Assembly: GCA_905233945.1 (NCBI GenBank)
Contig: CAJOFY010000005.1
Coordinates: forward strand, 14,698 to 78,697
Length of the DNA stretch: 64,000 bases
DNA from: an uncultured bacterium
Lineage (GTDB): Bacteria > UBP6 > UBA1177
Direction: 5' to 3'
The notes beneath the pieces are model-generated. The model made no database searches and was not told where the DNA came from. It worked only from the letters and a program-made list of their open reading frames with translations. Positions 31,809 to 47,860 of the stretch are shown piece after piece (position 1 is the stretch's first letter; the number at the start of each line of letters is the position of its first letter). The position numbers were made by a program, and so were the translations under genes.

Positions 31809-31883
31809 TTTTTCGTCCAAAAAAATTGATTTTCGTCCAAAAATCGACAAAATTGGACGAAAAATGTATACGTTGGACGAAAA
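31809..31883. repeat. Palindromic repeat cluster: 2 direct TTTTCGTCCAA + 2 inverted TTGGACGAAAA copies upstream of fic
   Basis: Direct reading; copies at 31810, 31831 (direct) and 31853, 31873 (inverted), ~21-bp phasing; overlaps fic promoter/RBS region. Confidence 0.8.
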
Positions 31884-31894
31884 CGGAGGAGTTT

Positions 31895-32953
31895 ATGAGA
31901 AATTTTGATTACAGCCAACTGTCAGAAAAAAAATGGAACTCGGATATTTTGAATCTTGTTGCCAAAATACACGAATGCAAGGGAAAGCAGGATCTGTTTA
32001 TCCGTCAGAAACCGGTGGAACTTAACCGTCTGGTGGAAATCGCCAAAATACAAAGCACGGAAGCGTCCAATAAAATCGAGGGGATCGTCACGACAAGCAC
32101 CCGTATGAAACAGCTGTTTGAAGAAAAAACTACTCCGCGAAACCGCGACGAAGACGAAATTATGGGATACCGCGATGTTTTGAACACGATCCACGAAAGC
32201 AACGAGCATATTCCGGTGCGTCCTTCCTATATTCTTCAGCTTCACCGTGATCTGTTGAAAAGAGCGGGATTTTCTTTCGGAGGACACTTTAAAAATGTCC
32301 AGAATTATATCAACGAGATGAGACCGGACGGCACTGTCGTCACCAGATTCACTCCGATTGCGCCTTATGATACGCCGGAGGCGGTCGAAAAACTGTGCAA
32401 CGCATACGAACAGGCAATCGCAAATGAAAAAATAGATTCCCTGATTCTGATTCCGGTCTTCATCTGCGATTTTCTATGCATCCACCCGTTCAATGACGGC
32501 AACGGCAGAATGAGCCGACTTCTCACTCTGCTTCTTCTCTATAAATGCGGTTACAATGTAGGAAAATACATAAGTATCGAAAAACAGATAGAAAAGACAA
32601 AGGATTTGTATTATGACGCGCTTGAGGAAGCTGACAAAGAGTGGCATGAAAACAAAAATGATCCGACACCGTTCATAAAATATATGCTTCAGGTGATTTT
32701 AGCCTGCTACATCGAGTTTGAAGACCGTGTCGGAATGATGCGCGGCAGCAGTACAAGCAAAGCTTATGACATCGTCAGACAGTATGTTGAAGAAAAAATC
32801 GGGAAATTTACAGGTGCGGATGTTGTTTCGCACTGCCCGGGCATAAGCAGATCGTCAGCTCTTGCAGCTTTGAAGAAACTTACGGAAGAAGGTTTTGTTA
32901 TCCGGGAAGGTATAGGCAAAAGTACATTTTATGTCCGTGCTGACAGTAAATGA
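31895..32953 (+). CDS. fic: Fic-family protein (AMPylator/Doc-like) with C-terminal winged-helix domain
   Basis: HPFNDGNGRMSR Fic motif; C-terminal wHTH-like segment; start at MRNFDY (RBS GGAGGAG) preferred over 31790. Confidence 0.8.
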   Translation: MRNFDYSQLSEKKWNSDILNLVAKIHECKGKQDLFIRQKPVELNRLVEIAKIQSTEASNKIEGIVTTSTRMKQLFEEKTTPRNRDEDEIMGYRDVLNTIHESNEHIPVRPSYILQLHRDLLKRAGFSFGGHFKNVQNYINEMRPDGTVVTRFTPIAPYDTPEAVEKLCNAYEQAIANEKIDSLILIPVFICDFLCIHPFNDGNGRMSRLLTLLLLYKCGYNVGKYISIEKQIEKTKDLYYDALEEADKEWHENKNDPTPFIKYMLQVILACYIEFEDRVGMMRGSSTSKAYDIVRQYVEEKIGKFTGADVVSHCPGISRSSALAALKKLTEEGFVIREGIGKSTFYVRADSK

Positions 32954-33007
32954 TTTTCGTCCAAAAATCGATAAAATCGGACGAAAAACAGAGCAGTTGG
33001 ATGAAAA
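32954..33007. repeat. Second copy of TTTTCGTCCAA...(T/C)GGA(C/T)GAAAA palindromic repeat set downstream of fic
   Basis: TTTTCGTCCAA at 32954, TCGGACGAAAAA at 32976, TTGGATGAAAAG at 32996. Confidence 0.75.
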
Positions 33008-33040
33008 GTCATTTTTCTATGACAAAATAGAGCTATTGTG

Positions 33041-35883: not shown

Positions 35884-36145
35884 AGTAACTTTGAAAGTCG
35901 ACGGCTGGCTTGACACGCAGTCCTCGCCGGAACTCGAAAAGGCTGTTTCAGAGCTTGAAAGCAATGTCGGATCACTTGTTCTTGACCTTGAAAAACTTGA
36001 ATACATCTCCTCCGCAGGGCTTCGCCAGATAGTCGCTGCGCACAAAAAGATGAACGGAAAACTCACTCTCAGGCATGTTCAACCCGACATTATGAGCGTG
36101 CTCAGCATGGCAGGATTTGACAAAAGACTCCATATCGAAGCATGA
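35852..36145 (+). CDS. STAS-domain anti-sigma-factor antagonist (SpoIIAA/RsbV-like)
   Basis: STAS fold pattern with conserved phosphorylatable Ser (YISSAGLRQI); start at MAVQK after GGAGGA. Confidence 0.65.
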   Translation: MAVQKITKGTEVTLKVDGWLDTQSSPELEKAVSELESNVGSLVLDLEKLEYISSAGLRQIVAAHKKMNGKLTLRHVQPDIMSVLSMAGFDKRLHIEA

Positions 36146-38091
36146 AACACTCCATCCAGAAAGAGATAATCGTAGTACTTGCGCTGGAGCTGATCGCGGT
36201 CATTGCCGCATGCGCACTCGTCACCTACCGCAATTTCTATTCGTCGGCACTCAAAACTTCCCGCGACGATTCCAGAAACGCGGCAAAGGCTGCCGGAACA
36301 ATAATCTCGGAATACGGACTTGATGCCGTGACTGATCCGGAGAACAAAGAACTTTACGGCAAAATACGCCGCAGACTGAGAGCGATATGCAAAGCTTTCG
36401 AACTTGATTATCTTTACATCTACACGATCGAAGGAAACGACGAGTGTCACTACATCATGGCCGTTGCCTCAAAAGACGAAAATGACCGCATCGCGGCGGA
36501 ACGGCTGGGGCTCGGCACGATAAGAGACTGTCATCCGCTCCATGCTCAGGAACAGGCTGCGATAAAGGGGGAAATAAGCGACGAACTCTTGATCCTCAGA
36601 AACGAATTCGGCGGGGATATGACCTGGATAGTCCCGTTTTTCGATAATAACGGCAAAGCCAGGGCTTTGATCGGCGCTGATGATGCTCTATATCTGTACA
36701 ATGCAGGGATCACCAGACATTTCTTTGTGGCACTGATCCCGATCTCGCTGCTCATCTTTATCGCCCACATGGTGCTTTTCTTTATAATCCACCGCAGGAT
36801 AGTGACCCCCGTGAAAACAATCGCAAACCGTATGCGGACTTTCGATCCGTCGCATGAGGAAGAACCTTTGCAGGTAAATTCGCAGGACGAGATGAGATCC
36901 ATTGCCGAAGCTTTTGAAAAAATGTCGCACGACATTCACCTCTACATCGAAAACATAGCTTCAATCACCTCGGAGCGCGAGCAGTCCAGAGCACAGCTTG
37001 ATGTTGCAAGGAAAATACAGTACGGCATGGTTCCAGCTTCCTTCAGTGAAAACAGAAACGGTGTCGATGTTTCCGCACTGATGCAGCCGGCAAAAGAGGT
37101 CGGCGGTGATTTTTACGACGCTTTTACCCTCGAAAACGGCAACTACTGCGCTCTGATCGGCGATGTTTCAGGCAAAGGAGTCGGCGGCGCACTGTTCATG
37201 GCACTTACGAAGTCGATACTTCGCGACAGAATGAAACAGATCATGGATCCAGCGGCAGTTCTCAACAAAGTCAACGACGATCTCTGCGCCCAGAATCCGG
37301 AAGGGATGTTCGCAACTGTCTTCGTGCTTGTGATCGATCCGAAAACGGGAGTCGTCACCTATGCCAACGCCGGTCACAATGCGCCCCTGCTGATATCGGG
37401 CGGCGAAGTCTCGTTTCTGAATCCAGAACCCGGGATCGCGCTCGGTCTTTTTGAAGACGCAGGCATCAGAAACGGAAATCTGACTTTGAAAAAAGGCGAA
37501 GGATTCCTGCTTTATACCGACGGAGTGACCGAAGCCGTGAACACGGAAAAAGCTTTCTACGGCGCGGAAAGACTTCTTTCTCTTTTGAAGAATAACACTC
37601 CGAAAGAGAGTTCTGCTGCTGTAAACGCTGTCAAAAACTCGGTTGAGGAGTTTTTCACCGGCTGCGATCAGTTCGACGACATAACCGTTCTTTCGCTTTT
37701 CTTCCGCAGCGGAGAAACGGTCTGTGAACTCAAGCCTGCACTCGAAGATTTCAGGATCGTGAAACAGACTGTAACGGAGAAATGTCCCGGCAGTCCCAAC
37801 GCTAAAAAAGCACTTCTTGCGTGCGAAGAAGCATTCGTGAATATAGTCAGCTATTCCGGCGCATCATACATTAAATTCTCGTGTTCAGCAGGCGGCGGCA
37901 TTCTCACCGTCACCCTGAAGGATAACGGCATTCGCTTCGACCCCTTTGCCGGCGAAAGTTCCGCAGAAAAGGATTTCGAATCTTTCGACAAAGGCGGCAT
38001 GGGTATCAGCCTGATAAAGCAGATAGCCGAAAAAACCGAGTGGAGATTCGAAAACGGAAACAATGTTCTGACATTGACTTTCAAGATATAA
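36142..38091 (+). CDS. Membrane sensor protein with fused PP2C/SpoIIE-type phosphatase and C-terminal HATPase_c (RsbW/SpoIIAB-like kinase) domain
   Basis: Two TM segments bracketing ~170-aa extracytoplasmic domain; PP2C motifs GGDFYD, IGDVSGKGVGGAL, YTDGVTEA; C-terminal GGMGISLIKQIAEKTEW ATP-lid; ATGA overlap with STAS gene. Confidence 0.65.
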   Translation: MKHSIQKEIIVVLALELIAVIAACALVTYRNFYSSALKTSRDDSRNAAKAAGTIISEYGLDAVTDPENKELYGKIRRRLRAICKAFELDYLYIYTIEGNDECHYIMAVASKDENDRIAAERLGLGTIRDCHPLHAQEQAAIKGEISDELLILRNEFGGDMTWIVPFFDNNGKARALIGADDALYLYNAGITRHFFVALIPISLLIFIAHMVLFFIIHRRIVTPVKTIANRMRTFDPSHEEEPLQVNSQDEMRSIAEAFEKMSHDIHLYIENIASITSEREQSRAQLDVARKIQYGMVPASFSENRNGVDVSALMQPAKEVGGDFYDAFTLENGNYCALIGDVSGKGVGGALFMALTKSILRDRMKQIMDPAAVLNKVNDDLCAQNPEGMFATVFVLVIDPKTGVVTYANAGHNAPLLISGGEVSFLNPEPGIALGLFEDAGIRNGNLTLKKGEGFLLYTDGVTEAVNTEKAFYGAERLLSLLKNNTPKESSAAVNAVKNSVEEFFTGCDQFDDITVLSLFFRSGETVCELKPALEDFRIVKQTVTEKCPGSPNAKKALLACEEAFVNIVSYSGASYIKFSCSAGGGILTVTLKDNGIRFDPFAGESSAEKDFESFDKGGMGISLIKQIAEKTEWRFENGNNVLTLTFKI

Positions 38092-38292
38092 GATAAGACC
38101 TCATCCCTGACCCTTCTCCAGTGTGGCGAAGGGAACCTTATCTTGGCTCCCACTTCTCGCCTCTCACTCAGGGAGAGGTGGCAGCCGAAGGCTGACGGAG
38201 AGGGCTTCCGTCATGTTGAGCAAAGCGAAACATCTCTGACCTTGAACGGAAACGGGAATTATTTTGGTGAGTTATCTTGCGGCGGTGTTGGC

Positions 38293-38318
38293 AATTGTGC
38301 AGAACATTCTGCACAATT
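38293..38318. repeat. Perfect 12-2-12 palindrome AATTGTGCAGAA-CA-TTCTGCACAATT
   Basis: Direct reading of sequence. Confidence 0.9.
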
Positions 38319-38374
38319 TAGTTACCTCGGAAATAATCGAACGAACTTCTTCAAATGATTTCTGAATCAAGATT

Positions 38375-38425
38375 TTCATTTATATTTCCTCGCAGCATTT
38401 ATGGTGGTCATTGTGGTTGGCTCCG
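38375..38425 (-). repeat. Conserved ~50-bp gene-leader repeat, copy 1 (minus strand ...CAATGACCACCATAAATGCTGCGAGGAAATATAAATG)
   Basis: Near-identical to copies at 39463 and 40555; contains SD GGAGGA/GAGGA and ATG of a minus-strand ORF (here only 32 codons). Confidence 0.8.
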
Positions 38426-38426
38426 T

Positions 38427-38729
38427 CTATTTTTTACATTCATTCGCTATTTCTGCCGCTATATTATTCAGCATAACACAATCATTGCGGCTGATATGCC
38501 GTTTGCTGGCATCATATTCCCATGGACTGAGGATAAGCAGCTCTCCTGCAGCACAAGCATCGAAGAGGTTATCCTGCGGTTTGTAATATTCACGAAAACC
38601 ATTGTCCGCCAAATATATGAACGGCAGTTTTTCTTTCAGCAGAACTTCCATCACCTGCCGCTCCTGCGGTGAAATGAACGGAGAGACCATAACGGTACCG
38701 TTGCGGGCGGTAACAACACATCCGTTCAT
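38427..38729 (-). CDS. Hypothetical protein / possible gene fragment downstream of RAYT
   Basis: No SD; in the same frame as upstream RAYT gene separated by one TAA and 10 codons. Confidence 0.3.
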   Translation of the reverse strand: MNGCVVTARNGTVMVSPFISPQERQVMEVLLKEKLPFIYLADNGFREYYKPQDNLFDACAAGELLILSPWEYDASKRHISRNDCVMLNNIAAEIANECKK

Positions 38730-38759
38730 GTAGTCACGAAGCTGTTGATTATCGCCACG

Positions 38760-39467
38760 TTAAGCAGCCTCGACCATTGTACGGCAGACATGCACTGGAG
38801 CAAAATGCCCAGCTTGCAGCAGTGACACATTGCCGACTCCGGAATAAGTTCTGCCGGCTATCTCTATGCCGGTTTGCACGCGGAAAAAGCCGGGACGCAG
38901 CCGTTTTGTGGCGAGACGCTGAGGATTCATCCTGATATAGCGGAACATTGTTTGCAGCTGTCCGCGGCGTGACAGCGGGCGGACAAAAGGCATTGCTGTG
39001 AAAACGGGATCCACATCTAACTTTTGTTTATCCCGAATACCATTCGGGTTATTTTCATTGTCATCATCATTTTGTCCATTACCTCGAATATTATTCGTGT
39101 GAATCGACAAACTATACTGTCGCCCGATTTTCTTTGCCCCTTGCCAGAAACCGCGCACAGCTGTCATAATGCCTTTTGGCATGGGCTGTGTAACATAGAG
39201 TATTGTGTGTAGATGATCCGGCATAAGGCAATATTGCAAAGTACGGATTTCAGGATGAAAATCGGAAATTTTGAACATAATACTGATTATTTGTTTTCCT
39301 AACTCTGTAGATTCCACTCTTGCTTGTGCAGGGTCATTTTCTGGAATAACAAGTGAGCCTAAGAGTGGCTCGCGGCTCGGAATCACCATCGTAACATGGT
39401 AAATACCGATTCCTTTCCATGCCGTGCCGGGCTTTTGCCAGTGCCATCTGTCAGGCTCATTTTCCAT
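38760..39467 (-). CDS. REP-associated tyrosine transposase-like (IS200-like Y1 HUH transposase, RAYT)
   Basis: IYHVT, PDHLHTIL (HuH) and RYIRMNPQR (catalytic Tyr) motifs; preceded by conserved leader repeat. Confidence 0.6.
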   Translation of the reverse strand: MENEPDRWHWQKPGTAWKGIGIYHVTMVIPSREPLLGSLVIPENDPAQARVESTELGKQIISIMFKISDFHPEIRTLQYCLMPDHLHTILYVTQPMPKGIMTAVRGFWQGAKKIGRQYSLSIHTNNIRGNGQNDDDNENNPNGIRDKQKLDVDPVFTAMPFVRPLSRRGQLQTMFRYIRMNPQRLATKRLRPGFFRVQTGIEIAGRTYSGVGNVSLLQAGHFAPVHVCRTMVEAA

Positions 39468-39512
39468 TTATATTTCCTCCAAGCATTTATGGTGGTCATT
39501 GGTTTTGCTCCG
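39463..39512 (-). repeat. Conserved gene-leader repeat, copy 2
   Basis: TTCCATTTATATTTCCTCCAAGCATTTATGGTGGTCATTGGTTTTGCTCCG. Confidence 0.8.
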
Positions 39513-39527
39513 TTTTCATCTCGTAAT

Positions 39528-40559
39528 TTAAATTTTTTCTTCCAATATTCCGCTAACCAATTTGCGCAGTTCCTCACGGTTTGGCAAATACAGTTCATAT
39601 TTTGAGACAAACAGATTGCTGTCCATTCCATAAGTTGTATACTCAACAAGCAGTTCATCTTTGTTGTGACTCAGAATAATTCCTATAGGCGGATTGTCGT
39701 TCGGTTCGTTTTCTTCCTTTGCAAAATAGCCCATATACATGTTCATTTGCCCGATATCTTCGTGTTTTACTGAATTTTTCTTTAAATCAATCAGCACAAA
39801 GCACTTCAAAATCCGGTGATAAAAAACCAAATCCACATGATAATGAACATTGTTTATTGTAATCGGATACTGCCGTCCGATGAACGCGAACCCTTTACCG
39901 AGTTCAAGCAGAAAGGTTTGAAGATTGTCAATAATCCGCTGTTCCAGATCACTTTCGGAATAACGCTCCATTTCAGGAAGTCCAAGAAATTCAAGCGTGT
40001 ATGTGTCTTTTACGACATCCATTGGTTTTTGAATTTCAATGCCTGTTTTTGCCAGTTCAAGAATTCCTTCCTTGTCTTTGCTTGCCGCAAGTCTCAAAAA
40101 CAGACCGGAATCCATCTGGCGGCGGAGGGAACGGACATCCCAGTTTTCTTTCACACATTCTTTTTCGTAAAAACTACGTTCAAGATCATCGTCTATTGTT
40201 ATTAACTCGCAGATATGGCTCCATGTTAATTTGTCAGAAGTCTGACAAAGTGGATATAGCAGGTAAAACTTCCGCATATTATTGAGATTTGGGCGGCTGT
40301 AACCTCTTCCCAAACGCATTGTCAGAATTTTAGCAAGATTTGTCAGCATTGAAGTTCCGTATTTAGCCTTTTTTCCACCGTCCTGCTCGAACTCGACAAT
40401 GTGATGTCCAACAGACCAATAAGTCTTGACCATGACGGCACTTATATTAAGTGCAAGACACGATTTTGTGAGATTCACTTCGTCAACAATAGTATTGGCA
40501 AGAACATTCAGTCTTTCATTTGTTTGAATTTCATCGTTTTTTACAAGTTCTTTATTCAT
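39528..40559 (-). CDS. YhcG-family PD-(D/E)xK nuclease (DUF1016)
   Basis: N-terminal GRGYSRPNLNNMRKFYLLYP (DUF1016_N-like) and C-terminal D...LIDLK PD-(D/E)xK motif. Confidence 0.65.
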   Translation of the reverse strand: MNKELVKNDEIQTNERLNVLANTIVDEVNLTKSCLALNISAVMVKTYWSVGHHIVEFEQDGGKKAKYGTSMLTNLAKILTMRLGRGYSRPNLNNMRKFYLLYPLCQTSDKLTWSHICELITIDDDLERSFYEKECVKENWDVRSLRRQMDSGLFLRLAASKDKEGILELAKTGIEIQKPMDVVKDTYTLEFLGLPEMERYSESDLEQRIIDNLQTFLLELGKGFAFIGRQYPITINNVHYHVDLVFYHRILKCFVLIDLKKNSVKHEDIGQMNMYMGYFAKEENEPNDNPPIGIILSHNKDELLVEYTTYGMDSNLFVSKYELYLPNREELRKLVSGILEEKI

Positions 40560-40606
40560 TTATATTTCCTCCAAGCATTCATGGTGGTCATTGGGGTTTG
40601 CTTACT
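40555..40606 (-). repeat. Conserved gene-leader repeat, copy 3
   Basis: TTCATTTATATTTCCTCCAAGCATTCATGGTGGTCATTGGGGTTTGC. Confidence 0.8.
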
Positions 40607-42041
40607 CTCTTTCTTTTACCAGTGAATAAGTTCTGTTCTTGTTCGCACCGTTGGCAACAATTTTTCCCTCTTCAACAAGTTCGGAAAGATAATCCTTTGT
40701 TCTCGATAGTTTAAGCCCGATATACAGCGAAATATCCTGTGTTTTGGCCTCGGTGTTATCTTTTAGATATTCCAGAATCTTATCTTTAAATTTTATCGCC
40801 GATTTATCGCCGATTTTAGTATTTATCACCGATTTATCGCCGACTTCAGTATTTATCGCCGATTTATCGCCGATTTTGGTGTAAGAGGGACGATAAAAAT
40901 TCACCCGCAGCATATCGCCGATTTCTAAGAACTCAGGTCTTTTGACGCCGTATTCATCACATTGAGAAAAAATGCGCTTAAATCCGGTTCCCCAGCCTTC
41001 AACAACATCTATTTTTTCTAAAGTGCGTGCAAGCGTCCTGTTTCTGACAGAAGAGCGGCCTGACAAGGCTTCTTCCAGTGTCAAAGAACCATATATGCTG
41101 CCGGGAGAAGAAATCTCGACTCTGTCGTCATAAACTGCGACCTGAACACTGGAACTCATCTGGTAGTTGCGGTGGATCACAGCATTTATGATAAGCTCGC
41201 GGATGGCTTTAGGCGGAAGTTCGTATCTTTCTTTGCGGACAATACCGTCTATTTCCACAGCCATGCTGAGATAGTTCAAAACGAATTTATATGCGCCGTC
41301 TATCTGCTCGCAAAGCGGTCCTTCATATTCCTTTTTATCAAGAAAATCGACGCGTTCCGTCCCTCTGAATCTTGCACACTGAATGCGTGAAGTATAGTCA
41401 TGTTTTCCCAGAAGAATAGCGTAAGCATTTGTCGCGATATCCTGCTTGATGCTGGTGAAAAGATTCAAGTTTTTCAATTCGTTCTTTGTGATTTTTCTCT
41501 CGGCGCGTTCCGAAAAATCCTTGCAGAGATATTTGATATCAGAAGCTTCAACTTTCAGTGAAGTAAACGGCAGTTCGTCATAATAAACATGGCGGCCACG
41601 GTTTGAAAGTTCATCCAAAGCCGTCCAGTCAGCATTGCGAGTCGTCGCTCCGCGCCTGATATAAGTTCCGTTTTCCTTACCCTGCGATTTCACATAATAC
41701 GGCGTGGCGTTTCCCGGAAAAACAGTTACAACAAGAAGCTGTGCGTTTTCGATGTTTTCAGCCGTTATGTCGAACATGATCTGCGGCTCGCATGTGTGGG
41801 CGATAGTGTCGGCAATACTGTCTTTCAGCTCGAACAGATCAATACTTTTCGGAATTCCGACAAATTCCCGCTTGTCATTCACGCCGATCACGAACTTGCC
41901 GCCAGCTCCGTTCGCAAAAGCGACAATTGTTTTCACCCATTTCCGCGCATCCTGCGGAAGTTCCTGCTTAAATTCAAGAGTTCGGCTCTCGCCGGATTTT
42001 ATTTCATCGAGTAAGGTCATTGTGTTTTGCTCCATTTTCAA
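40602..42041 (-). CDS. Schlafen-like AlbA_2 (divergent AAA) + HATPase_c_4 ATP-binding protein with C-terminal wHTH, paralog 1
   Basis: N-terminal ESRTLEFKQELP...IVAFANGAGGKFVIGV AlbA_2 signature; central ELIINAVIHRNY histidine-kinase-like ATPase; 3x10-aa tandem peptide repeat before wHTH. Confidence 0.65.
   Translation of the reverse strand: MKMEQNTMTLLDEIKSGESRTLEFKQELPQDARKWVKTIVAFANGAGGKFVIGVNDKREFVGIPKSIDLFELKDSIADTIAHTCEPQIMFDITAENIENAQLLVVTVFPGNATPYYVKSQGKENGTYIRRGATTRNADWTALDELSNRGRHVYYDELPFTSLKVEASDIKYLCKDFSERAERKITKNELKNLNLFTSIKQDIATNAYAILLGKHDYTSRIQCARFRGTERVDFLDKKEYEGPLCEQIDGAYKFVLNYLSMAVEIDGIVRKERYELPPKAIRELIINAVIHRNYQMSSSVQVAVYDDRVEISSPGSIYGSLTLEEALSGRSSVRNRTLARTLEKIDVVEGWGTGFKRIFSQCDEYGVKRPEFLEIGDMLRVNFYRPSYTKIGDKSAINTEVGDKSVINTKIGDKSAIKFKDKILEYLKDNTEAKTQDISLYIGLKLSRTKDYLSELVEEGKIVANGANKNRTYSLVKERE
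40793..40882 (-). repeat. 3 x 30-bp in-frame tandem repeat (KIGDKSAINT units) inside paralog 1
   Basis: TTTATCGCCGATTTATCGCCGATTTTAGTA x3 with minor variation. Confidence 0.85.
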
Positions 42042-42202: not shown

Positions 42203-45200
42203 TTACTTCTTGAACTCCAAATATTCCGCGTATTTTTGCGCCATAAGATTTTTGATGTAACTTTCCATATACGCATAATCGGGCTTACCTGCGGAATCTA
42301 CAGGAAGAATAAGCTGATAAGAAGACAACCTGCTTTGTGTTATAGAATGAGCATGACCGAATCTGTCTGCTTGTTGAGAAATAATTTTACTTAAAAAAAT
42401 AAGTTGAAATTTATTCAACACCTGTTTGTGATATAAAATCGTAACATGAGAATCAACTGCCATAAAAGCGGGTTGATAATAAGCAAGTCCAGCTCCTCCA
42501 TCTCCATCATTATTTAAAGATATGCAGTTTCCTTCAAAATGTTTCTTGGAGTTTTGTGAAACAAACGCTTTTAAGCCATTATTTATTTTTTTGGCAGAGA
42601 TTAAAGGAATTTTACCTTCCTCAAGGACATTCATATTATTTTGATTTCCTTTTTTAAACATAAACAAGTTTGTTATTGGAAACGCCTTCCATTCCTTATC
42701 CTCAAGTTTTTCTATTTTGGGATTTACTTTTCCTTGGGTAGTCTTGAGGCATTCACTCAGCCGTTTTGTGGCAAAGCCCCGATATTCTTTAATTTTATGA
42801 TCTTCAAGTTCTTTTATATATGATTCCATGAAATTGTAGTCTATTTCACCTTTTGAATTTACAGGGAGGATGATATTCTGTGCTCTCATACGGTTTTCAT
42901 TGAATTTATACGCATATAAAAATTTAGATTTTTGTTGCAGGATATTTGTTTTCATAAATAACAAGGAAAATTTATTATCTTTCCAGTTTCTTAGATGAAA
43001 TCTTTTCACGTCATCTGAAAAAATGCATTCATAAGGATGATAGAAGTTCTCAACAACACTGCCGTTATAATTTACGCCAAGAACATTTTTATCAAGGGAC
43101 TTATTTTCATTTGACACGAAATTGGTGATCCCATTGTTTGAATCAGAGGCTCCGATAAAAGGTCTTTCTCCTTGTTTCATCTCTGATGCCACAAGGCGTT
43201 TTCCCGCTTTTATCTCAAAAATATCAGTAAGTTTCGATTCTTTCCAATCTCGACTTGTCAGTTCTTTTTTAAAGTTTTTTTTTACGTTTTCCGAATTATT
43301 ATCGTCTTCAAAAAGATATTTTCTACCTTGCATGATCATTGAAAACTCAAAAGTAAGGTAATCTCCGACAGTCTTTTCAAAATCCTTGTCGGTAGGAATC
43401 TCGTCATTGAAATAATAAAAACTGTGCAGCCATTCATCTTCCGCTGTGATTGCCGTTTTTACGCAGAACTTCGTCGGAGCTTCAATGCGGTTAAACCACA
43501 CATCAAGCAAATGCTGCCTTTTGTCTTTTGCGCTCTCTGTCTCCAAAAGCCCGATATGCGGAGACACCTTAAAGCCGTCATCCTCAAAATTCACGAATTT
43601 GCATATCTTCTCTTTGTCATGCGGTACCCCAGCTGTAAAAACAGCAATGCACGGAATTACGCCGATTCCATAAAAGGTATCTTTCTGAAGCATAATCGTT
43701 CCTTCGAGCGTGTGCTTTTTCAAAATCGAATTTTTTATCTGCTGTTCTTCCTTTGATTTTCCGGTCATTGAACTTTGAGGAACTATCACGGCACATCTTG
43801 AATTTGGAAGAAGTGAATCCAAAAGATGTTCCGTAAAAGCAATTTCATAAAGACTCGGATCTTTTTTTGTTCCCTGAGAATAAGGCGGATTCAACATTCC
43901 GACTGTTGCTCTGAAGTCTGTCTGAAGCTGTTTCGGATTTTTAGCAAGAAAATCATCACAGTGCAAATTGCTTTTGCCGTCGCCTCGAAGAATCATGTTT
44001 GTTGTCGCTACAGTGAACATATCCGGACGAAGCTCTATTCCGAACAATTGATTTTTACGGATATGCTGTTGTTCACTTTCTTTTGTACTTTGCGAAAGCA
44101 TTTTATGAAGCGCAGCGACAAGAAAACCGCCTGTTCCGCAGCACGGGTCAAAAATTCTGTCGGTAGTTTTCAAATCAAGCAAATCGCAGAAAAGTTCCGT
44201 AATATGGCGTGGAGTAAGAACTATTCCTAAAGTTTGACCACTACCACCGGAATAGCGCATAAACTCGCCGTAAAAACGACCAAGATAATCCTCAGCCGAT
44301 TTTGTATATTTGATTGACTTATAAAGTTTTTCGTCCAGAAACTTTGCAAAGAATTTCAGCGGAGTTTCGCCAAGAGTCGCATTTTTTTCGTTTAACTTTG
44401 TACTGTCTTTTATGATTGCGAACTGCGAAAGAATTTTATCGATTTTTGTTATCGGCGATAAATCCGTTCTTTTGAAACTTGATTCAATCGCATTGTAAAT
44501 TTTCTGTCCGTCGGTTACGAAAGAGTCTCCGTTTAGTGAATCTATGCTGAAATTTCCATGGTCACGCTCACGCAAAGCAAGAAGAATTCCCGAAACAACA
44601 AGCGGTTTTTCTTCATCTTTCATATTACCGTAGTTTCTCAAATGCTCGTGCAATACTTTTGCATCCGCCAAGATCTCTTCCAGTTCTTTTTCTTTGTCGC
44701 TCGATTCCTTCAAGACATCGCAAAGATAATACTCGTCGATATTTTTTTCATTAAACGAAATAAAAGATTCAACATCTTCAAGCTGGTCAAACAGATTTTG
44801 CCTGTCATCAACAAAAAGCGGAGTAATCCGATGATTTTTTTCATTTCCGGAAACTCCTAAAGCAAAAACTTTTTTATAAGTCGTATTCTGAATCAAATGT
44901 TTCGCATAGAACAACGCGCCGTTCACGGCAAACTCAACAACATCTTTAGTCTCAAGGCTGATAAGTTTATTTGAATCGTATTTCACATGATTTTCGAGTT
45001 TCGGCTTATCTTCAATTACAATAATAAAATCTTTTACAACGCCCACATATTCAGGAAAACCGACTTTGCCAGTGCCGCGTTTTGACGCTGTTTTTAAAGC
45101 CTCATCAATTTCTTTTATTTCGCTTCCCTGTGCATCTAATTCTATTCCGGCTTCTTTCAGTAAATCGTGAACCCACAAATCGGTTTTAACTTCTTTTTTT

Positions 45201-45205
45201 GCCAT
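42203..45205 (-). CDS. Single-chain restriction-modification protein: N-terminal putative PD-ExK nuclease + HsdM-like N6-adenine methyltransferase + two HsdS-type target-recognition domains (Type IIB/IIG-like)
   Basis: MTase motifs LGIVLTPRHITELFCDLL, FDPCCGTGGFL, MLNPPYS; two TRDs each followed by conserved helix (DYNFMESYIKEL / DYAYMESYIKNL); N-terminal FPEYVGVVKDFIIVIEDK possible nuclease motif. Confidence 0.7.
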   Translation of the reverse strand: MAKKEVKTDLWVHDLLKEAGIELDAQGSEIKEIDEALKTASKRGTGKVGFPEYVGVVKDFIIVIEDKPKLENHVKYDSNKLISLETKDVVEFAVNGALFYAKHLIQNTTYKKVFALGVSGNEKNHRITPLFVDDRQNLFDQLEDVESFISFNEKNIDEYYLCDVLKESSDKEKELEEILADAKVLHEHLRNYGNMKDEEKPLVVSGILLALRERDHGNFSIDSLNGDSFVTDGQKIYNAIESSFKRTDLSPITKIDKILSQFAIIKDSTKLNEKNATLGETPLKFFAKFLDEKLYKSIKYTKSAEDYLGRFYGEFMRYSGGSGQTLGIVLTPRHITELFCDLLDLKTTDRIFDPCCGTGGFLVAALHKMLSQSTKESEQQHIRKNQLFGIELRPDMFTVATTNMILRGDGKSNLHCDDFLAKNPKQLQTDFRATVGMLNPPYSQGTKKDPSLYEIAFTEHLLDSLLPNSRCAVIVPQSSMTGKSKEEQQIKNSILKKHTLEGTIMLQKDTFYGIGVIPCIAVFTAGVPHDKEKICKFVNFEDDGFKVSPHIGLLETESAKDKRQHLLDVWFNRIEAPTKFCVKTAITAEDEWLHSFYYFNDEIPTDKDFEKTVGDYLTFEFSMIMQGRKYLFEDDNNSENVKKNFKKELTSRDWKESKLTDIFEIKAGKRLVASEMKQGERPFIGASDSNNGITNFVSNENKSLDKNVLGVNYNGSVVENFYHPYECIFSDDVKRFHLRNWKDNKFSLLFMKTNILQQKSKFLYAYKFNENRMRAQNIILPVNSKGEIDYNFMESYIKELEDHKIKEYRGFATKRLSECLKTTQGKVNPKIEKLEDKEWKAFPITNLFMFKKGNQNNMNVLEEGKIPLISAKKINNGLKAFVSQNSKKHFEGNCISLNNDGDGGAGLAYYQPAFMAVDSHVTILYHKQVLNKFQLIFLSKIISQQADRFGHAHSITQSRLSSYQLILPVDSAGKPDYAYMESYIKNLMAQKYAEYLEFKK

Positions 45206-45304: not shown

Positions 45305-45360
45305 ATTTTGAAATTTGGATGTTAGACAATCTTGACTCGGAGAATGAGAAAATGCGTTGT
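45305..45360. repeat. Intergenic repeat R1 copy A (TTGAAATTTGGATGTTAGACAATCTTGACTCGGAGAATGAGAAAATGCG)
   Basis: ~85% identical to 46940-47000. Confidence 0.7.
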
Positions 45361-45411: not shown

Positions 45412-46866
45412 TCAGATCTTTTTGTTTAGAATATATGTTCTATTGCGGTTTGCACCTTTTGCTATAATTTTACCGGATTCAACAAGGTCATATAGATAGA
45501 ATTTTGTCTGCGTAGCCTTCAAACCGAGCATTTCGCTGAGTTCTTTCAAAGCGCACTCTTCGTGGTTTTCCAAATATTCGAGGATAAGTGATTTAGCGTT
45601 CCTTTTTGTCGTCGGTTTATCGTCGGTTTCTGGTTTTGTCGTCGGTTTATCGTCGGTTTTTGGTTTTGTCGTCGGTTTATCGTCGGTTTTTCGGTAAATA
45701 TTCGTGCGGATTGCAATTTCCATATCAATAAATTCAGGCTCGGCAAGACCGGAATCTTTAAGCGAATCTATAATTCGCGGAATTCCTGTTCCCCATTGCT
45801 CTATCAAGCGCATATAATGAAAAGCATTGGCTATAGCCTCGTTGCGGACTTTGGAAAACCCCTGTTTCATACGTTCAATTGTTATTCCTTTAGGCAGTCC
45901 GCCGGGAGAAGTGATTTCAAGCCGGTCATCAAAAATCGCAATCTGAATATGGGATACTTCAAGATAACTGCGGTGAAGAACAGCATTTATGATCAATTCG
46001 CGAATCGCTGTCGGAGGAATTTCATAGACATCCTGCCTGAAAAGCCCTTTTATTTCAGCACCAAGATGGATGTTGCGCAGAACAAAACTGTAAGCATCTT
46101 CAATCTGCTGCTGAATCGGACCAGTAAACTCCCGTCGGTCAACAAACACACTTCTGTCGGTTCCTTTAAAAACCGCACACTGTATTTTCGCGCACCACAA
46201 CGAATTTTTTGAAAGCAGATCAAAAGCATTCGTCCTGCAAAGCCTGCCGTTGTTTTCATATAAAAGTTGCCACGAAAGCAGATTGTTCTTTGTCAGCGGT
46301 TTAATATTCCGCCTCTGTTCGTCAGTTTTGCAGTTTTTAATTGCTGTCGCTTTCAAAGAATTGCAAAAAGATCGAAGTTCTTTTTCCAAAACAAACTTTT
46401 CACGCTGAACCGTTCTATCAAAACCCGTGTTTGAACCTTCAAACATCAGAGCTCTAATGGTGTCTCTGTCAGCAAGCCGCGTAGTTGCGGAAAGACGCAC
46501 GAAACAACCGTTTTCAAGCCCCAAAGACTTTATGTAGTAAGGCGTGTGCTCACCCGGATAAATTTGTGCGACAATAACCGTTTTATTCTGTAAAGTCTGC
46601 AAAGAAACATCACACATAATCTGCGGCATACAGTTGTCGTAAATCATATTGGAAACAGAATCGGCCGTTTTAAAAAGATTATCACTCTCTATCCCGACAA
46701 CATCATGCGTCTCATCATCTATTCCGAAAATAATCCGCCCTCCGTGCCCGTTTGCAAAAGCGACAACTGTTTTCAAAAATTTTATATGGTCATCCGGAAT
46801 CTGCCGCTTGTATTCCAGAGTGTTTGATTCAGGTTCTATTTTTGAAAAAATTTGATTTTTGATCAT
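45412..46866 (-). CDS. Schlafen-like AlbA_2 + HATPase_c_4 ATP-binding protein with C-terminal wHTH, paralog 2
   Basis: Same architecture as 40602..42041 (~35% identity); 3x10-aa tandem repeat TDDKPTTKP(K/E). Confidence 0.65.
   Translation of the reverse strand: MIKNQIFSKIEPESNTLEYKRQIPDDHIKFLKTVVAFANGHGGRIIFGIDDETHDVVGIESDNLFKTADSVSNMIYDNCMPQIMCDVSLQTLQNKTVIVAQIYPGEHTPYYIKSLGLENGCFVRLSATTRLADRDTIRALMFEGSNTGFDRTVQREKFVLEKELRSFCNSLKATAIKNCKTDEQRRNIKPLTKNNLLSWQLLYENNGRLCRTNAFDLLSKNSLWCAKIQCAVFKGTDRSVFVDRREFTGPIQQQIEDAYSFVLRNIHLGAEIKGLFRQDVYEIPPTAIRELIINAVLHRSYLEVSHIQIAIFDDRLEITSPGGLPKGITIERMKQGFSKVRNEAIANAFHYMRLIEQWGTGIPRIIDSLKDSGLAEPEFIDMEIAIRTNIYRKTDDKPTTKPKTDDKPTTKPETDDKPTTKRNAKSLILEYLENHEECALKELSEMLGLKATQTKFYLYDLVESGKIIAKGANRNRTYILNKKI
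45605..45692 (-). repeat. 3 x 30-bp in-frame tandem repeat (TDDKPTTKPx units) inside paralog 2
   Basis: GGTTTTGTCGTCGGTTTATCGTCGGTTTTT x3. Confidence 0.85.
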
Positions 46867-46879
46867 ATTTAGCTCCTCA

Positions 46880-47000
46880 AAAAAACAAAAACTCGAATAT
46901 TATAATAAATATTTTTGAAAATTGAAGAAAAATTTATCAATTTTGAAATTTAAATGTTAGACAATGTTGAGTCGGAAAATAATGAAATGCGATCTGCGAT
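46880..47000. repeat. Intergenic repeats R2 copy A (46880-46945) and R1 copy B (46940-47000)
   Basis: R2 copy A ~95% identical to 47797-47860; both precede minus-strand gene starts and contain TTCAAT-N16-TATAAT promoter-like elements on minus strand. Confidence 0.7.
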
Positions 47001-47083: not shown

Positions 47084-47371
47084 TCAGTTGTTCTGCGGAA
47101 GGAATTCGATCTTGAGTTTCATTCCCATTCCGGTGGCAAGACGTTGCAGTGTTCTGAGTGAGGGATTGGCGTTGCCTTTTTCTATTCTGCTGATGTCGCC
47201 TTGTGCGATACCGGTGCGTTCGGAAAGTTCCTTCTGGGTGAGTCCCGATTGCTTGCGGGCATCGATAATCGCCTGAATTACGGCGTGTTCCGGCTGAAGA
47301 AGCTCGTATTCCGCCTTAAAATCGGGGTTTTTTAGCTGTTCTTTGAGGAAATCGTTAAATTTTTCGCCCAT
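47084..47371 (-). CDS. higA: HigA-family antitoxin (XRE HTH)
   Basis: LTQKELSERTGIAQGDISRIEKG helix-turn-helix; downstream of toxin gene with overlap. Confidence 0.75.
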   Translation of the reverse strand: MGEKFNDFLKEQLKNPDFKAEYELLQPEHAVIQAIIDARKQSGLTQKELSERTGIAQGDISRIEKGNANPSLRTLQRLATGMGMKLKIEFLPQNN

Positions 47372-47726
47372 TTTTATCTCCGTTTCTACGCAAATAATCA
47401 GCTCTGTATTTTTTCGCTCGTTCTATTTCGGCGGCCGGAGTTTTCTGCGTTTTTTTGATAAAACCGTGAGTCAGAACAATCCGCCGGTCAACATAAAAGA
47501 AATAGAAAACTCGCATTGCATTTGTTTCAGCCTGGGCTCTCAGCTCAAAAATCCCGTCCGACAAATATTTGGAATACGGCTCTCTCAAATCGTATCCGTT
47601 ATCCTGCAATATCGAGATCATGTCCGCCATTTTTGCCCTCATTTTGACACCCAGAGAAAGAAGAAAATCTTTTGCCGGCTTGTCACCATTCTCTTTCTCA
47701 TAAAATTCAACTTCAAAATTTGTCAC
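47355..47726 (-). CDS. higB: HigB/Gp49-like RelE/ParE-superfamily toxin
   Basis: Gp49/DUF891-like sequence (FELRAQ...RVFYFF...RIVLTHGFIKKTQKTP); toxin-first arrangement. Confidence 0.65.
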   Translation of the reverse strand: MTNFEVEFYEKENGDKPAKDFLLSLGVKMRAKMADMISILQDNGYDLREPYSKYLSDGIFELRAQAETNAMRVFYFFYVDRRIVLTHGFIKKTQKTPAAEIERAKKYRADYLRRNGDKNGRKI

Positions 47727-47796
47727 TGAACCACTACAAAAAATATTTTATGTGATTTATCCTATTTTGTCAATCTCGATTTTCACATCTTATAAA

Positions 47797-47860
47797 AAAA
47801 CAAAAACTCAAATATTGTAATAAATATTTTTGAAAATTGAAGAAAAATTTATCGATAATT
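47797..47860. repeat. Intergenic repeat R2 copy B upstream of higB
   Basis: AAAAACAAAAACTCAAATATTGTAATAAATATTTTTGAAAATTGAAGAAAAATTTATCGAT. Confidence 0.7.

Follow-up and report, generated by a model that had tools for sequence, protein, structure and literature searches.

Why should three consecutive genes that are unrelated to one another all begin with the same sequence of about fifty nucleotides? The question is raised by the window, the whole 64-kb stretch of DNA analysed here, in which a leader of 45-50 nt occurs in three direct copies, all on the minus strand, in the order AlbA_2 - L - YhcG - L - HUH/DprA gene - L - stub (L for leader). The first-pass annotation had described a ~50-bp leader ahead of three consecutive minus-strand genes, in copies ~1090 bp apart that each supply a strong SD sequence and the start codon, and our analysis bears out all of this. 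When the window is searched with the core pattern AATGACCACCATAAATGCTTGGAGGAAATATAAATG, allowing up to 3 mismatches, exactly 3 matches are obtained, all on the minus strand, with 2 mismatches at 38377-38412, 0 at 39465-39500 and 1 at 40557-40592; the pattern was matched in 0 of 100 shuffled controls, and no copy is expected by chance. The core is 92-97% identical among the copies, a repeat search of the window recovered the leader family, its copies spaced 1088 and 1092 nt apart, and in every copy GGAGG is followed by 8 nt and then by the ATG of an ORF. One detail is corrected: the small ORF behind the last copy, given earlier as 32 codons, is counted at 35. A Logan contig (L021, ERR3525319), possibly from the same sample as the window, carries the same arrangement with all three copies at 100% identity over 2431 nt, which makes an error peculiar to the window assembly unlikely.

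Since a Type IIG restriction-methyltransferase is present (Table 1), we regard the gene neighbourhood as a restriction/defence island. Its GC content is 39.6%, against 46.5-48.4% in the flanks, and its ORFs (TA pair, AlbA_2, type IIG RM, AlbA_2, YhcG, HUH/DprA) include neither an integrase or recombinase gene nor a canonical transposase. Other island genes, too, are bracketed by direct repeats of their own, among them the toxin-antitoxin pair, which lies between 63-nt repeats that are 95% identical (46879-46941 and 47794-47856). AlbA_2 #2, whose 472-aa protein gave no match in an exact-protein look-up, sits between a partial fourth copy of the leader and leader copy 1. Just downstream of a promoter-like sequence lies this partial copy; the promoter-like sequence, TTGGCA-16-TGnTAAGAT, was read manually in L006 and is conserved in L003, L025 and the window, and a promoter scan did not list the region upstream of AlbA_2 #2. 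The stub ORF after the last leader recurs in L001-L004, L007, L008 and L015, and the stem of its internal hairpin is kept between loci while the loop varies.

Table 1 Features of the leader array and of the surrounding island in the window
Feature	Positions	Strand	Remarks
Stub ORF, 35 codons	38272..38379	(-)	MKILIQKSFEEVRSIISE...; follows last leader
Hairpin inside stub	38293..38318	(-)	Perfect 10-bp stem, AATTGTGCAG-loop-CTGCACAATT; z = -3.4
Leader copy 3	38377..38426	(-)	ACGGAGCCAACCACAATGACCACCATAAATGCTGCGAGGAAATATAA + stub ATG; directly after HUH/DprA-like gene TAG
HUH (IS200/IS605 TnpA/RAYT-fold) + DprA/ShosA-like fusion gene	38427..39467	(-)	Between leader copies 2 and 3
Leader copy 2	39465..39513	(-)	ACGGAGCAAAACCAATGACCACCATAAATGCTTGGAGGAAATATAA + ATG of HUH/DprA-like gene
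YhcG/DUF1016 PD-(D/E)XK nuclease gene	39528..40559	(-)	PADLOC candidate PDC-S02; between leader copies 1 and 2
Leader copy 1	40557..40601	(-)	GCAAACCCCAATGACCACCATGAATGCTTGGAGGAAATATAA + YhcG ATG; directly after AlbA_2 #2 TAA
AlbA_2 #2	40602..42020	(-)	Schlafen AlbA_2 + HATPase_c_4 + wHTH, 472 aa from ATGACC
Partial fourth copy, module (a) only	42015..42033	(-)	GGAGCAAAACACAATGACC = SD + start codon ATGACC of AlbA_2 #2
Type IIG restriction-methyltransferase with specificity domains	42203..45205	(-)	
AlbA_2 #1 paralogue	45412..46866	(-)	Between other direct repeats, 45305-45356 and 46940-46991
Gp49 (HigB-like)/HTH toxin-antitoxin pair	47084..47726	(-)	

The leader is not confined to this array. 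A search of relatives, as suggested with the first-pass annotation, revealed it at no fewer than 13 other loci, spread over several MAGs: 7 loci are from species-representative genomes and 6 are genuine metagenome loci, the latter remaining from 13 metagenome matches after 7 (L009, L010, L012-L014, L016, L018) had been discarded as chance by HMM scoring. Together with further copies gathered through gene-based look-ups, this amounts to 32 leader copies in 23 distinct 80-nt contexts from rumen/gut assemblies, with one or two leaders per related locus and at most three (L021). No copies were found in the viral contigs, plasmids and phages searched. The genes behind the leader comprise three kinds of DUF1016/YhcG, three kinds of AlbA_2 (Schlafen-like), the HUH-transposase-like gene and the conserved 35-codon stub; besides the HUH/DprA gene and the stub, the types that can be named are YhcG-343, a second DUF1016 type (L011) and AlbA_2 of 495 and 543/355 aa. 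Wherever a gene follows, the leader stands directly 5' of its start codon in the sense orientation. The leaders of L005 and L017 lie at other chromosomal sites, near genes that have the look of housekeeping genes.

The sequence of the leader is composite, and can be divided into three modules. Module (a), ACGGAGCAAAACCAATGACC, makes up the 5' third and consists of the SD sequence and the first two codons of an AlbA_2-type gene, and also forms the start of a small upstream ORF (the mini-ORF); as GGAGCAAAACCAATGACC it matches the SD and start of AlbA_2 in L003 exactly, and those in L043 and at 42015-42033 of the window almost exactly. Module (b), ACCATRAATGCTT, is a short filler, of which CATAAATGCT(G) matches the codons of the LIINAV motif of AlbA_2, collinearly and with the reading frame kept; the filler may thus be a piece from inside that AlbA_2 gene, on a match of only 10-11 nt with a roughly estimated chance probability of ~0.01-0.1. 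Module (c), GGAGGAAATATAAATG, makes up the 3' third, where it provides the following gene with its ribosome-binding site and start, and is found without (a) and (b) before the HUH gene in L006 and L025, and before AlbA_2-543 in L008. In six loci (L043, L008, L022, L037, L003, L025) the leader position is occupied by longer 5' remnants of AlbA_2, which we estimate from the sequences at roughly 35, 80-100 and 130-150 nt. In L043, a 98% identical YhcG gene stands behind such a remnant, with a different ribosome-binding site, and 3' remnants of AlbA_2-543 follow YhcG in L001, L002 and L043.

Where the window is homologous to related loci, the homology sets in or breaks off at one or other end of the leader. 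Homology to L002 begins at 40602 and that to L019 ends at 40554; L005 and L017 share with the window only 40544-40602, and with L001, L002, L007 and L008 the shared sequence is limited to 39461-39529, resuming from 38426 onward. These last four loci have one leader each, and also differ from the window by the AlbA_2-543 remnant and by their upstream genes; the single leader of each has the left flank of window copy 2 and the right flank, the stub, of window copy 3. At the left end of the leader, ACGGAGC is joined to at least 4 different upstream flanks at the same nucleotide, which could also mean a site-specific process; L043, however, shows this junction to be simply the distance from stop to SD that is normal for AlbA_2 genes in tandem. 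The right-hand junction shifts into codons 2-4. A single AlbA_2-495 gene body occurs with two alternative sets of first codons, ATGAATAAAGAC and ATGGAAAAAGAC, placing the junction inside codons 2-3. First codons are also shared between different genes (YhcG-343 and AlbA_2-495 both begin MNK, the HUH gene and the DUF1016 gene of L011 both begin MENE), which is only suggestive of junctions within coding regions, since A-rich N-termini are common. The first-pass annotation had offered a recombination junction as one of its alternatives, and the comparison bears this alternative out: homology breaks at the leader ends, and the same leader joins many different pairs of genes.

The reading that we favour, with a probability of roughly 0.6, is that in the leader the vestige of a gene start has become joined to a ribosome-binding site, and that it acts both as translation initiation region and as recombination junction for the modules of the defence island. 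The ~49-nt sequence would then be a junction module of composite and vestigial nature, in a restriction/defence island that rumen spirochaetes exchange horizontally, left over from an AlbA_2 gene after deletion of nearly all of its coding sequence. We infer from sequence comparison that the remnant then spread between modules of the island by recombining at (a) and (c), short sequences that are native to many of these modules, and that successive module gains produced the array seen in the window. Compared with loci of the L001/L002 type, the window would have gained the HUH gene and one leader, i.e. an insertion with a ~49-bp target duplication. Judged by its sequence, each copy would give its cistron, on a polycistronic transcript, a strong and unstructured region for translation initiation, a role that the absence of a stable fold suits (z between -1.6 and +1.0), and the direct repeats would offer homology for the gain, loss and exchange of modules, while the mini-ORF would be a fossil of the AlbA_2 start codon rather than a selected peptide. 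Modules (a) and (c), at ~20 and ~16 nt, are short for RecA-dependent exchange, and among the loci compared we saw no excision product or circular intermediate, and no pair of loci, identical in their flanks, that would show the state before and after in clean form.

Alternatively, the leader could be a cis-regulatory element, a shared 5' UTR or intercistronic site through which one trans-acting factor, be it a small RNA, the wHTH borne by AlbA_2 proteins, or termination and reinitiation at the mini-ORF, controls all cistrons of the island. The 36-nt core is conserved at 90% or more at nearly every position across the 23 contexts, beyond what an SD sequence needs; 'head' copies (L006, L011, L025) start within a few nucleotides of the predicted transcription start, a conserved promoter-like sequence lying upstream; and the adjoining AlbA_2 proteins bear a DNA-binding wHTH. 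The conservation of the core, for which CAATGACCACCAT may stand, is in part ascertainment, because the scans that built the collection required the core, and copies retrieved through their genes vary more, with 2-3 substitutions in module (b) (CACAAGT, CAAAGAT) and with ATGCCC instead of ATGACC. Moreover, the flanking sequence is conserved to a similar degree (87-99%), and the identity of the leader may therefore only reflect recent common origin. It also counts against a regulatory site that elsewhere the HUH gene and AlbA_2-543 carry module (c) only, and that the YhcG gene of L043 has a different ribosome-binding site.

The mini-ORF had been put forward in the first-pass annotation as a leader peptide whose TGA overlaps the main ATG, permitting translational coupling. 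The 11-codon frame with this ATGA stop-start overlap, a point in favour of regulation, is indeed present in copies 1 and 3, but not in copy 2, where ATG is followed by G (ATGG) and the mini-ORF continues for 38 codons into the HUH/DprA-like gene, out of frame. Overlap arises only where the next gene begins with ATGA, and is absent from most copies. Depending on the copy, the mini-ORF has 8, 11, 13, 14, 16, 29 or 38 codons (8 being a manual reading in L005/L017), in one copy TTG stands where the ATG should be, its own SD is missing in several copies, and all five substitutions tallied in it change the amino acid. With a length that varies this widely and substitutions that all alter the peptide, a leader-peptide role is unlikely. 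RNA structure prediction, also suggested at that stage, gave nothing beyond shuffled controls (z = -1.6, +0.3, +1.0 and -0.4), and an Rfam scan of the whole window found no family at gathering score. Folding the leader as DNA, on both strands, gave no hairpin either (-1.7 and -2.2 kcal/mol; z = +0.26 and -0.34). All in all, we consider a cis-regulatory element unlikely, and the lack of predicted RNA or DNA structure, Rfam match or hairpin argues that the leader is neither REP-like nor attC-like.

This last point bears on the gene between leader copies 2 and 3, which the first-pass annotation had called a RAYT. Its ORF starts at 39467 and is interrupted in frame by TAA at 38760-38762, a codon that reads GAA in homologues; the window copy is a probable pseudogene. 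The protein has no Pfam match, and its match to the NCBIfam family NF047646 (REP_Tyr_transpos) is weak (E 4e-5, 23 bits, against a family cut-off of 80). PDB sequence searches with the protein and with its family profile returned nothing useful, and only a fold search was informative: the structural model combines an N-terminal IS200/IS605-like fold with a C-terminal DprA/ShosA-like domain. Taken together, the protein has the superfamily resemblance to a RAYT without being a member of the RAYT family, and the identification as a canonical RAYT does not stand. In more distant genomes (L022-L024, L030-L036) none of the homologous genes has the leader, and in L022-L024 an AlbA_2 5' remnant lies upstream. 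The family to which the HUH+DprA-like protein belongs is large, widespread, unnamed and under-studied.

Could such a protein, acting on single-stranded DNA, or a host Xer-type recombinase, use the leader as an att-like site of a cassette-capture system, in which a gene and one leader move as a unit in the manner of integron cassettes or pdif modules? Both ends of the leader are discrete and joined to many different flanks, direct copies bracket every module, several loci with the leader also have an HUH-fold gene, and a manual reading reveals a weak 8-8-8 inverted arrangement, CCAATGAC-N8-ATGCTTGG, with 5 of 8 positions complementary. However, HUH enzymes and attC recombination need a hairpin, which the leader lacks, the island has no integrase or recombinase gene, and the HUH gene of the window is interrupted by a stop codon. 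The HUH gene is missing from most leader loci, as is the leader from HUH homologues of other taxa. A fixed att site would also not predict the partial versions, i.e. (a) only, (c) only and the graded AlbA_2 remnants, which fit decay by deletion, nor a right-hand junction that wanders into codons 2-4. We thus regard an att-like site as decidedly improbable. Slimmer still are the prospects of a broader proposal, in which the leader is either a dedicated cassette-junction site, served by integrase-less capture with the HUH+DprA-like protein or Xer in trans, or an operator or RNA site for the AlbA_2 wHTH. In its cassette-junction form, AlbA_2/Schlafen-like, DUF1016 and HUH-DprA genes would be stacked behind one promoter, each with a ready-made ribosome-binding site.

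A small mobile repeat of the REP or MITE kind, mobilised by the adjacent RAYT, is very hard to maintain. It would draw on the Y1-fold gene between copies 2 and 3 and on the NCBIfam match, the 23 bits of which fall far under the 80-bit cut-off. The REP-like element of the first-pass annotation is contradicted by the missing hairpin, by copies that flank the HUH gene in direct rather than inverted orientation, and by a copy number of 3 in 64 kb and of one or two, at most three, per retrieved locus. A leader that is always in sense and immediately 5' of a start codon is unexpected for a repeat that inserts at random, and most leader loci lack the HUH gene just as most homologues of that gene lack the leader. 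Purely local tandem duplication of one gene start, which could account for copies ~1090 nt apart with 92-97% identical cores, is barely credible, and in effect refuted, as the three downstream genes are unrelated and the same leader precedes other genes at other chromosomal sites in other genomes and metagenome loci.

If the leader is, as we favour, a vestigial gene start that became a junction, it would provide a small-scale picture of how a defence island is assembled, with unrelated genes stacked by recombination at a tiny junction, which would be the ghost of a displaced gene and would also give newcomers a strong ribosome-binding site. For annotation it counsels caution, in that 'leaders' that are identical and have a neat mini-ORF upstream can be scars of recombination and not regulatory devices. 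It also draws attention to an under-studied hypervariable site, adjoining a SpoIIE-type phosphatase gene, in rumen spirochaetes. We would see in this an instructive but fairly ordinary case of genome evolution, and no new class of system.

Several known systems share individual features with the array. Like integron cassettes, it consists of promoterless genes in the same orientation, with a repeat of ~50 nt between them; in contrast to integrons there is no intI tyrosine recombinase gene among the island ORFs, and in contrast to attC the leader has no R''/L''-L'/R' inverted-repeat structure and no fold, and lies 5' of each gene, including the SD and ATG. An attC/integron reading was rejected, with RYYYAAC...GTTRRRY boxes on neither strand (manual reading), no fold and no intI. 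A RAYT is a single-domain Y1 HUH transposase, and REPs are short imperfect palindromes, inverted around the RAYT and dispersed in many copies. The resemblance of our locus to REP/BIME elements is that an HUH Y1-fold gene adjoins short repeats; these are non-palindromic, in direct orientation and low in copy number, and the HUH + DprA-like fusion has ~345 aa, compared with ~150-180 aa in a RAYT. With translational-coupling uORFs, copies 1 and 3 share an 11-codon ORF whose TGA overlaps the main ATG; here, however, the overlap is set by the first base of the downstream second codon, and the peptide is not conserved.

Closer parallels exist among systems built by recombination. Mosaic phage genomes have short conserved boundary (linker) sequences, as outlined in work cited in PMC3029335, and on that outline the leader resembles them as a short conserved gene-boundary sequence at which homology between differing genomes starts and stops; it differs in being chromosomal, with no matches in viral contigs or phage records, and in that a single type of linker is used several times in one operon. 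Sequential displacement arrays, formed by anchor-based, homology-facilitated illegitimate recombination, are described for T6SS orphan immunity and Rhs/CDI orphan arrays (PMC5361080). There, many alleles have a conserved 5' anchor, a newcomer takes over part of the gene in residence and moves older genes further downstream, the modules being separated by vestiges of the displaced gene (PMC5361080). The AlbA_2-543 3' remnants after YhcG (L001, L002, L043) and the AlbA_2 5' remnants fit this picture, whereas the modules here are unrelated defence-type genes and not effector/immunity pairs, and the vestige is only 49 nt long and bears the SD of the next gene; for our locus, we infer the mechanism from sequence. 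Finally, restriction-modification systems are known from insertions with target duplications of 46 bp and longer (PMC2853133; Nobusato/Furuta/Kobayashi), including one of 46 bp on either side of a type I RM system into which, in turn, a regulator gene and an ATP-binding-protein gene have been inserted (PMC2853133). As in these insertions, direct repeats of more than 30 bp bracket island genes without a transposase or integrase, here 45-50 nt long and around YhcG and around the HUH gene. The single-copy loci L001, L002 and L008 align with both window copies of the ~49-bp repeat, and differ from the window in other ways too. The difference is that here the same 'target' is reused repeatedly, giving rise to an array, that the leader recurs at other sites in other genomes and before other genes, and that it doubles as the ribosome-binding site of the inserted gene while probably being itself the remnant of a gene.

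The 36-nt core of the leader, AATGACCACCATAAATGCTTGGAGGAAATATAAATG, matched the 64 kb only three times in a pattern scan, always on the minus strand (a count per window, the host genome being covered over these 64 kb only), and in 0 of 100 dinucleotide shuffles of the window; a repeat search also picked out this family, its members lying 1088 and 1092 nt apart. All three copies are present in L021, a Logan contig assembled from run ERR3525319, within 2431 nt that match the window at 100% identity, which makes an error specific to the window's assembly unlikely; the two possibly come from the same sample. The three leaders noticed by the first-pass annotation before three consecutive genes are thus real and reproducible. 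The 3' ends of the copies are the start codons of three consecutive minus-strand ORFs, and every copy provides GGAGG, 8 nt and ATG in an unstructured, A-rich context. Given this arrangement and the finding by site scan of no terminator-like or strong promoter-like site between the cistrons, the simplest reading is that the three genes would be translated independently from one polycistronic RNA.

Features of the leader family, the island and its flanks (window coordinates; full leader extents are our placement)
Feature	Position	Strand	Remark
Core, copy 1	40557-40592	-	1 mismatch
Core, copy 2	39465-39500	-	0 mismatches
Core, copy 3	38377-38412	-	2 mismatches
Full leaders, copies 1, 2, 3	40557-40601, 39465-39513, 38377-38426	-	45-50 nt
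Low-GC island	38.3-47.9 kb		39.6% GC; flanks 46.5-48.4%
Island 1, Gp49/HTH toxin-antitoxin pair		-	
Island 2, AlbA_2 #1		-	Schlafen AlbA_2 + HATPase_c_4 + wHTH
Island 3, type IIG restriction-methyltransferase	42203-45205	-	1000 aa, specificity domains
Island 4, AlbA_2 #2		-	
Island 5, leader copy 1, then YhcG/DUF1016		-	PADLOC candidate PDC-S02
Island 6, leader copy 2, then 'RAYT' gene		-	
In-frame TAA in 'RAYT' gene	38760-38762		
Island 7, leader copy 3, then 35-codon stub	stub 38272-38379	-	
Stub hairpin	38293-38318		perfect 10-bp stem, no T-tract
Direct repeats	46879-46941 / 47794-47856		63 nt, 95% identity; bracket toxin-antitoxin pair
Direct repeats	45305-45356 / 46940-46991		52 nt, 85% identity; bracket AlbA_2 #1
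AlbA_2 tandem repeats	40791-40880, 45604-45693		three 30-nt units each, in frame
GC-rich elements	38100-38270	-	between stub and SpoIIE gene
SpoIIE-type phosphatase gene	36142-38091	+	convergent, adjoins island
Direct repeats	31824-31902 / 32948-33026	+	79 nt, 76% identity; bracket 387-aa ORF
2424-aa ORF	48024-55298	+	adjoins island; internal repeats 49777/52807, 50700/53748

All genes of the island lie on the minus strand, and no recombinase gene was found among its ORFs. The flank on the SpoIIE side is 90-94% identical to contigs of the rumen 'Spirochaetales' MAGs RUG11946 and RUG12558 and of MAG UBA1177, which carry different island genes at the same site; this combination argues that, in rumen spirochaetes, the site is a hypervariable position for defence islands. 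Since the toxin-antitoxin pair and AlbA_2 #1 have repeat pairs of their own, nearly every island module is flanked by duplicated upstream sequence. The 52-nt repeat is present too in the related loci L015 and L020.

The restriction-methyltransferase, 635 residues of which match a type IIG model (E 2.5e-160), also carries two type I-like Methylase_S specificity domains and is a predicted single-polypeptide R-M-S enzyme. The tandem repeats of both AlbA_2 genes lie between HATPase_c_4 and wHTH and encode IGDKSAINTE-like and KPTTKPKTDD-like units; in related loci, some deletion junctions carry their sequence CGGCGATAA. Outside the island, the sequence of the 2424-aa ORF, with internal repeats about 3.0 kb apart, suggests an NRPS-like protein with repeated adenylation-type modules, and the 79-nt repeat, in which TTTTCGTCCAA / TTGGACGAAAA motifs abound, may serve two neighbouring genes as a common upstream operator.

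RNA structure in the leader, a point raised by the first-pass annotation, is ruled out by the blank Rfam search and by folds near those of shuffles (z-scores -1.6 to +1.0). The suggestion of a REP-like element fares no better: single-stranded DNA folds of the leader equal those of shuffles, which, as far as sequence can tell, rules out a REP-like or attC-like hairpin site. The GC-rich elements beside the SpoIIE gene (...GGTCAGAGATGTTTCGCTTTGCTCAACATGACGGAAGCC..., then CCTCTCCGTCAGCCTTCGGCTGCCACCTCTCCC...) resemble REP elements more than the leader does; L001-L004 and L007 have them at the corresponding place, in varying number and order.

If the leader had arisen by purely local tandem duplication of one gene start, the motif would occur only here. 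Among species-representative genomes, a pattern scan with the degenerate core found seven loci, all in rumen MAGs from reindeer, cattle and yak, with two separate loci in UBA1177; the metagenome scan gave 13 matches, six being genuine full leaders by profile HMM scoring and the other seven chance matches to the core. The pattern scan of viral contigs found no leader, and plasmid and phage collections gave no match to a 62-nt leader query. Protein look-ups (YhcG, HUH) yielded further copies, bringing the total to 32, which represent 23 distinct 80-nt contexts; because the collection scans demanded an exact core, diverged copies are missed and conservation figures inflated. The gene 3' of the leader is YhcG-343, a second DUF1016 type (L011), an AlbA_2 gene of 495 aa (L005, L017, L019, L038-39) or 543/355 aa (L006, L019), the HUH/DprA ('RAYT') gene (window, L037, L040) or the stub; on its 5' side stands the stop codon of YhcG, the HUH gene or either of two AlbA_2 types, or else a promoter-like region or a DUF2326 gene. 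These varied genes on both sides refute a local duplication.

A leader peptide was also proposed, encoded by a mini-ORF whose TGA overlaps the main ATG. The overlap holds where the next gene begins ATGA, and only there; the peptide is not conserved. Its length ranges from 8 (L005/L017) to 38 codons, one copy starts with TTG, several lack an SD for the mini-ORF, and 5/5 tallied differences change the amino acid, which together make a leader-peptide role unlikely.

The leader is instead divisible into modules (a), ACGGAGCAAAACCAATGACC, (b), ACCAT(G/A)AATGCTT, and (c), GGAGGAAATATAAATG. Module (a) is how an AlbA_2 gene begins, with its SD and start codon: in L003, GGAGCAAAACCAATGACC runs directly into TTACTCGATGAAATAAAATCCGGCGAGAGC (MTLLDEIKSGES...), and the start of AlbA_2 #2 (42015-42033) matches this type, as does an internal copy in L043. 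These three occurrences argue that the mini-ORF ATG is the AlbA_2 start codon, and the GGAG 8 nt upstream the AlbA_2 SD. Module (b) is found in the leader only; its variant CATAAATGCTG matches, collinearly and in frame, the codons for the conserved ...LIINAV... motif in three AlbA_2 genes; over just 10-11 nt, this is suggestive of derivation from them. Copies retrieved by routes other than the DNA pattern have 2-3 changes in (b), and one reads ATGCCC for ATGACC; the module does not appear strongly constrained. In L006 and L025, module (c) stands without (a) and (b) right before the HUH gene, and in L008 it stands alone before AlbA_2-543.

Longer AlbA_2 5' remnants (INTERMEDIATE forms), joined to a ribosome-binding site that leads into another gene, occupy the leader position in related loci, with lengths estimated by us from printed sequences at about 35 nt (L043, 5' of a YhcG 98% identical to the window's), 80-100 nt (L008, L022, L037, L043) and 130-150 nt (L003, L006/L025). 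The L003 remnant holds a scrap of the ...KIDVVEGWG... region and that of L006/L025 part of the GDKS repeats, and AlbA_2-543 C-terminal remnants follow YhcG in L001, L002 and L043. The leader would be the smallest in this series of decayed AlbA_2 genes. Recurrent remnants of about 80-100 nt upstream of various genes (L003, L008, L022, L037, L043) encode M[TSP]LL..KSG...LEFK.ELPQ.A.K, a few codons and a stop, with nearly the same end codon throughout, sequence-diverged versions included. In L043, two DUF1016 genes are preceded by that locus's own repeat, 'leader-2' (CGGCGATAATTTGGAGGTAAGATAGATGGAAAAAGAA).

The recombination junction offered as an alternative in the first-pass annotation is borne out by BLAST, in which blocks common to the window and other loci start or stop at the leader. 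Homology to L002 (99.3%) starts exactly at 40602, that to L019 (97.8%) runs to 40554 and diverges beyond, and that to L005 and L017 is limited to 40544-40602. Around copy 2, L001, L002, L007 and L008 share only 39461-39529, homology resuming from 38426 onward (copy 3 and stub). The single leader of L001/L002 has the left flank of copy 2 (AAATTACGAGAT...) and the right flank of copy 3 (the stub); in a reconstructed order, the window would, relative to them, have gained the HUH gene and one leader copy and lost an AlbA_2-543 remnant. One AlbA_2-495 body has two alternative first codons, ATGAATAAAGAC and ATGGAAAAAGAC, and a junction therefore lies inside codons 2-3.

The 'RAYT' label of the minus-strand gene at 38427-39467 is upheld in part. 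Pfam gave no match for the product, and its sole family match, NCBIfam REP_Tyr_transpos, is partial at 23 bits against a cut-off of 80. An 84% identical homologue, as modelled by AlphaFold (mean pLDDT 82.5), gave fold-search matches to structures of IS200/IS605 TnpA and of RAYTs (E about 1e-4 to 1e-3, target TM 0.55-0.67), and separate ones to DprA and ShosA. Guided by sequence motifs and the weak NCBIfam match, we place a putative TnpA fold in the N-terminal half and a DprA/ShosA-like one in the C-terminal half; this placement is our own, as the search output gives no aligned residue ranges. The 3314 homologues, all unnamed, include spirochaete and Paludibacteraceae members at 60-70% identity; the leader is absent from homologues elsewhere, and the gene from most leader loci. 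The window's copy has an in-frame stop. The stub is conserved after the last leader in at least eight loci, its hairpin kept between loci with a varying loop (AATGTT, TTTCAGA, TTTTCGA).

We therefore favour, at a probability of roughly 0.6, the reading that the leader is the vestige of an AlbA_2 start, joined to a ribosome-binding site, and that shuffled defence-island modules use it both as their junction and as their translation start. The repeats were most likely created by repeated recombination within the island, which may have proceeded by one or more of homologous exchange via modules (a) and (c), which are short and shared, homology-facilitated illegitimate recombination, and insertion with long target duplication; existing repeats would then offer homology for module gain, loss or swap, the order of events being a reconstruction. 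Published parallels are RM insertions with flanking direct repeats of at least 46 bp (PMC2853133), which likewise have direct repeats around genes and no mobility gene, together with RM loci with DUF1016 genes lodged inside (PMC9881135), sequential displacement arrays (PMC5361080) and boundary sequences in mosaic phages (PMC3029335). The leader arrangement is a variation on this known repeat-flanked RM-island architecture.
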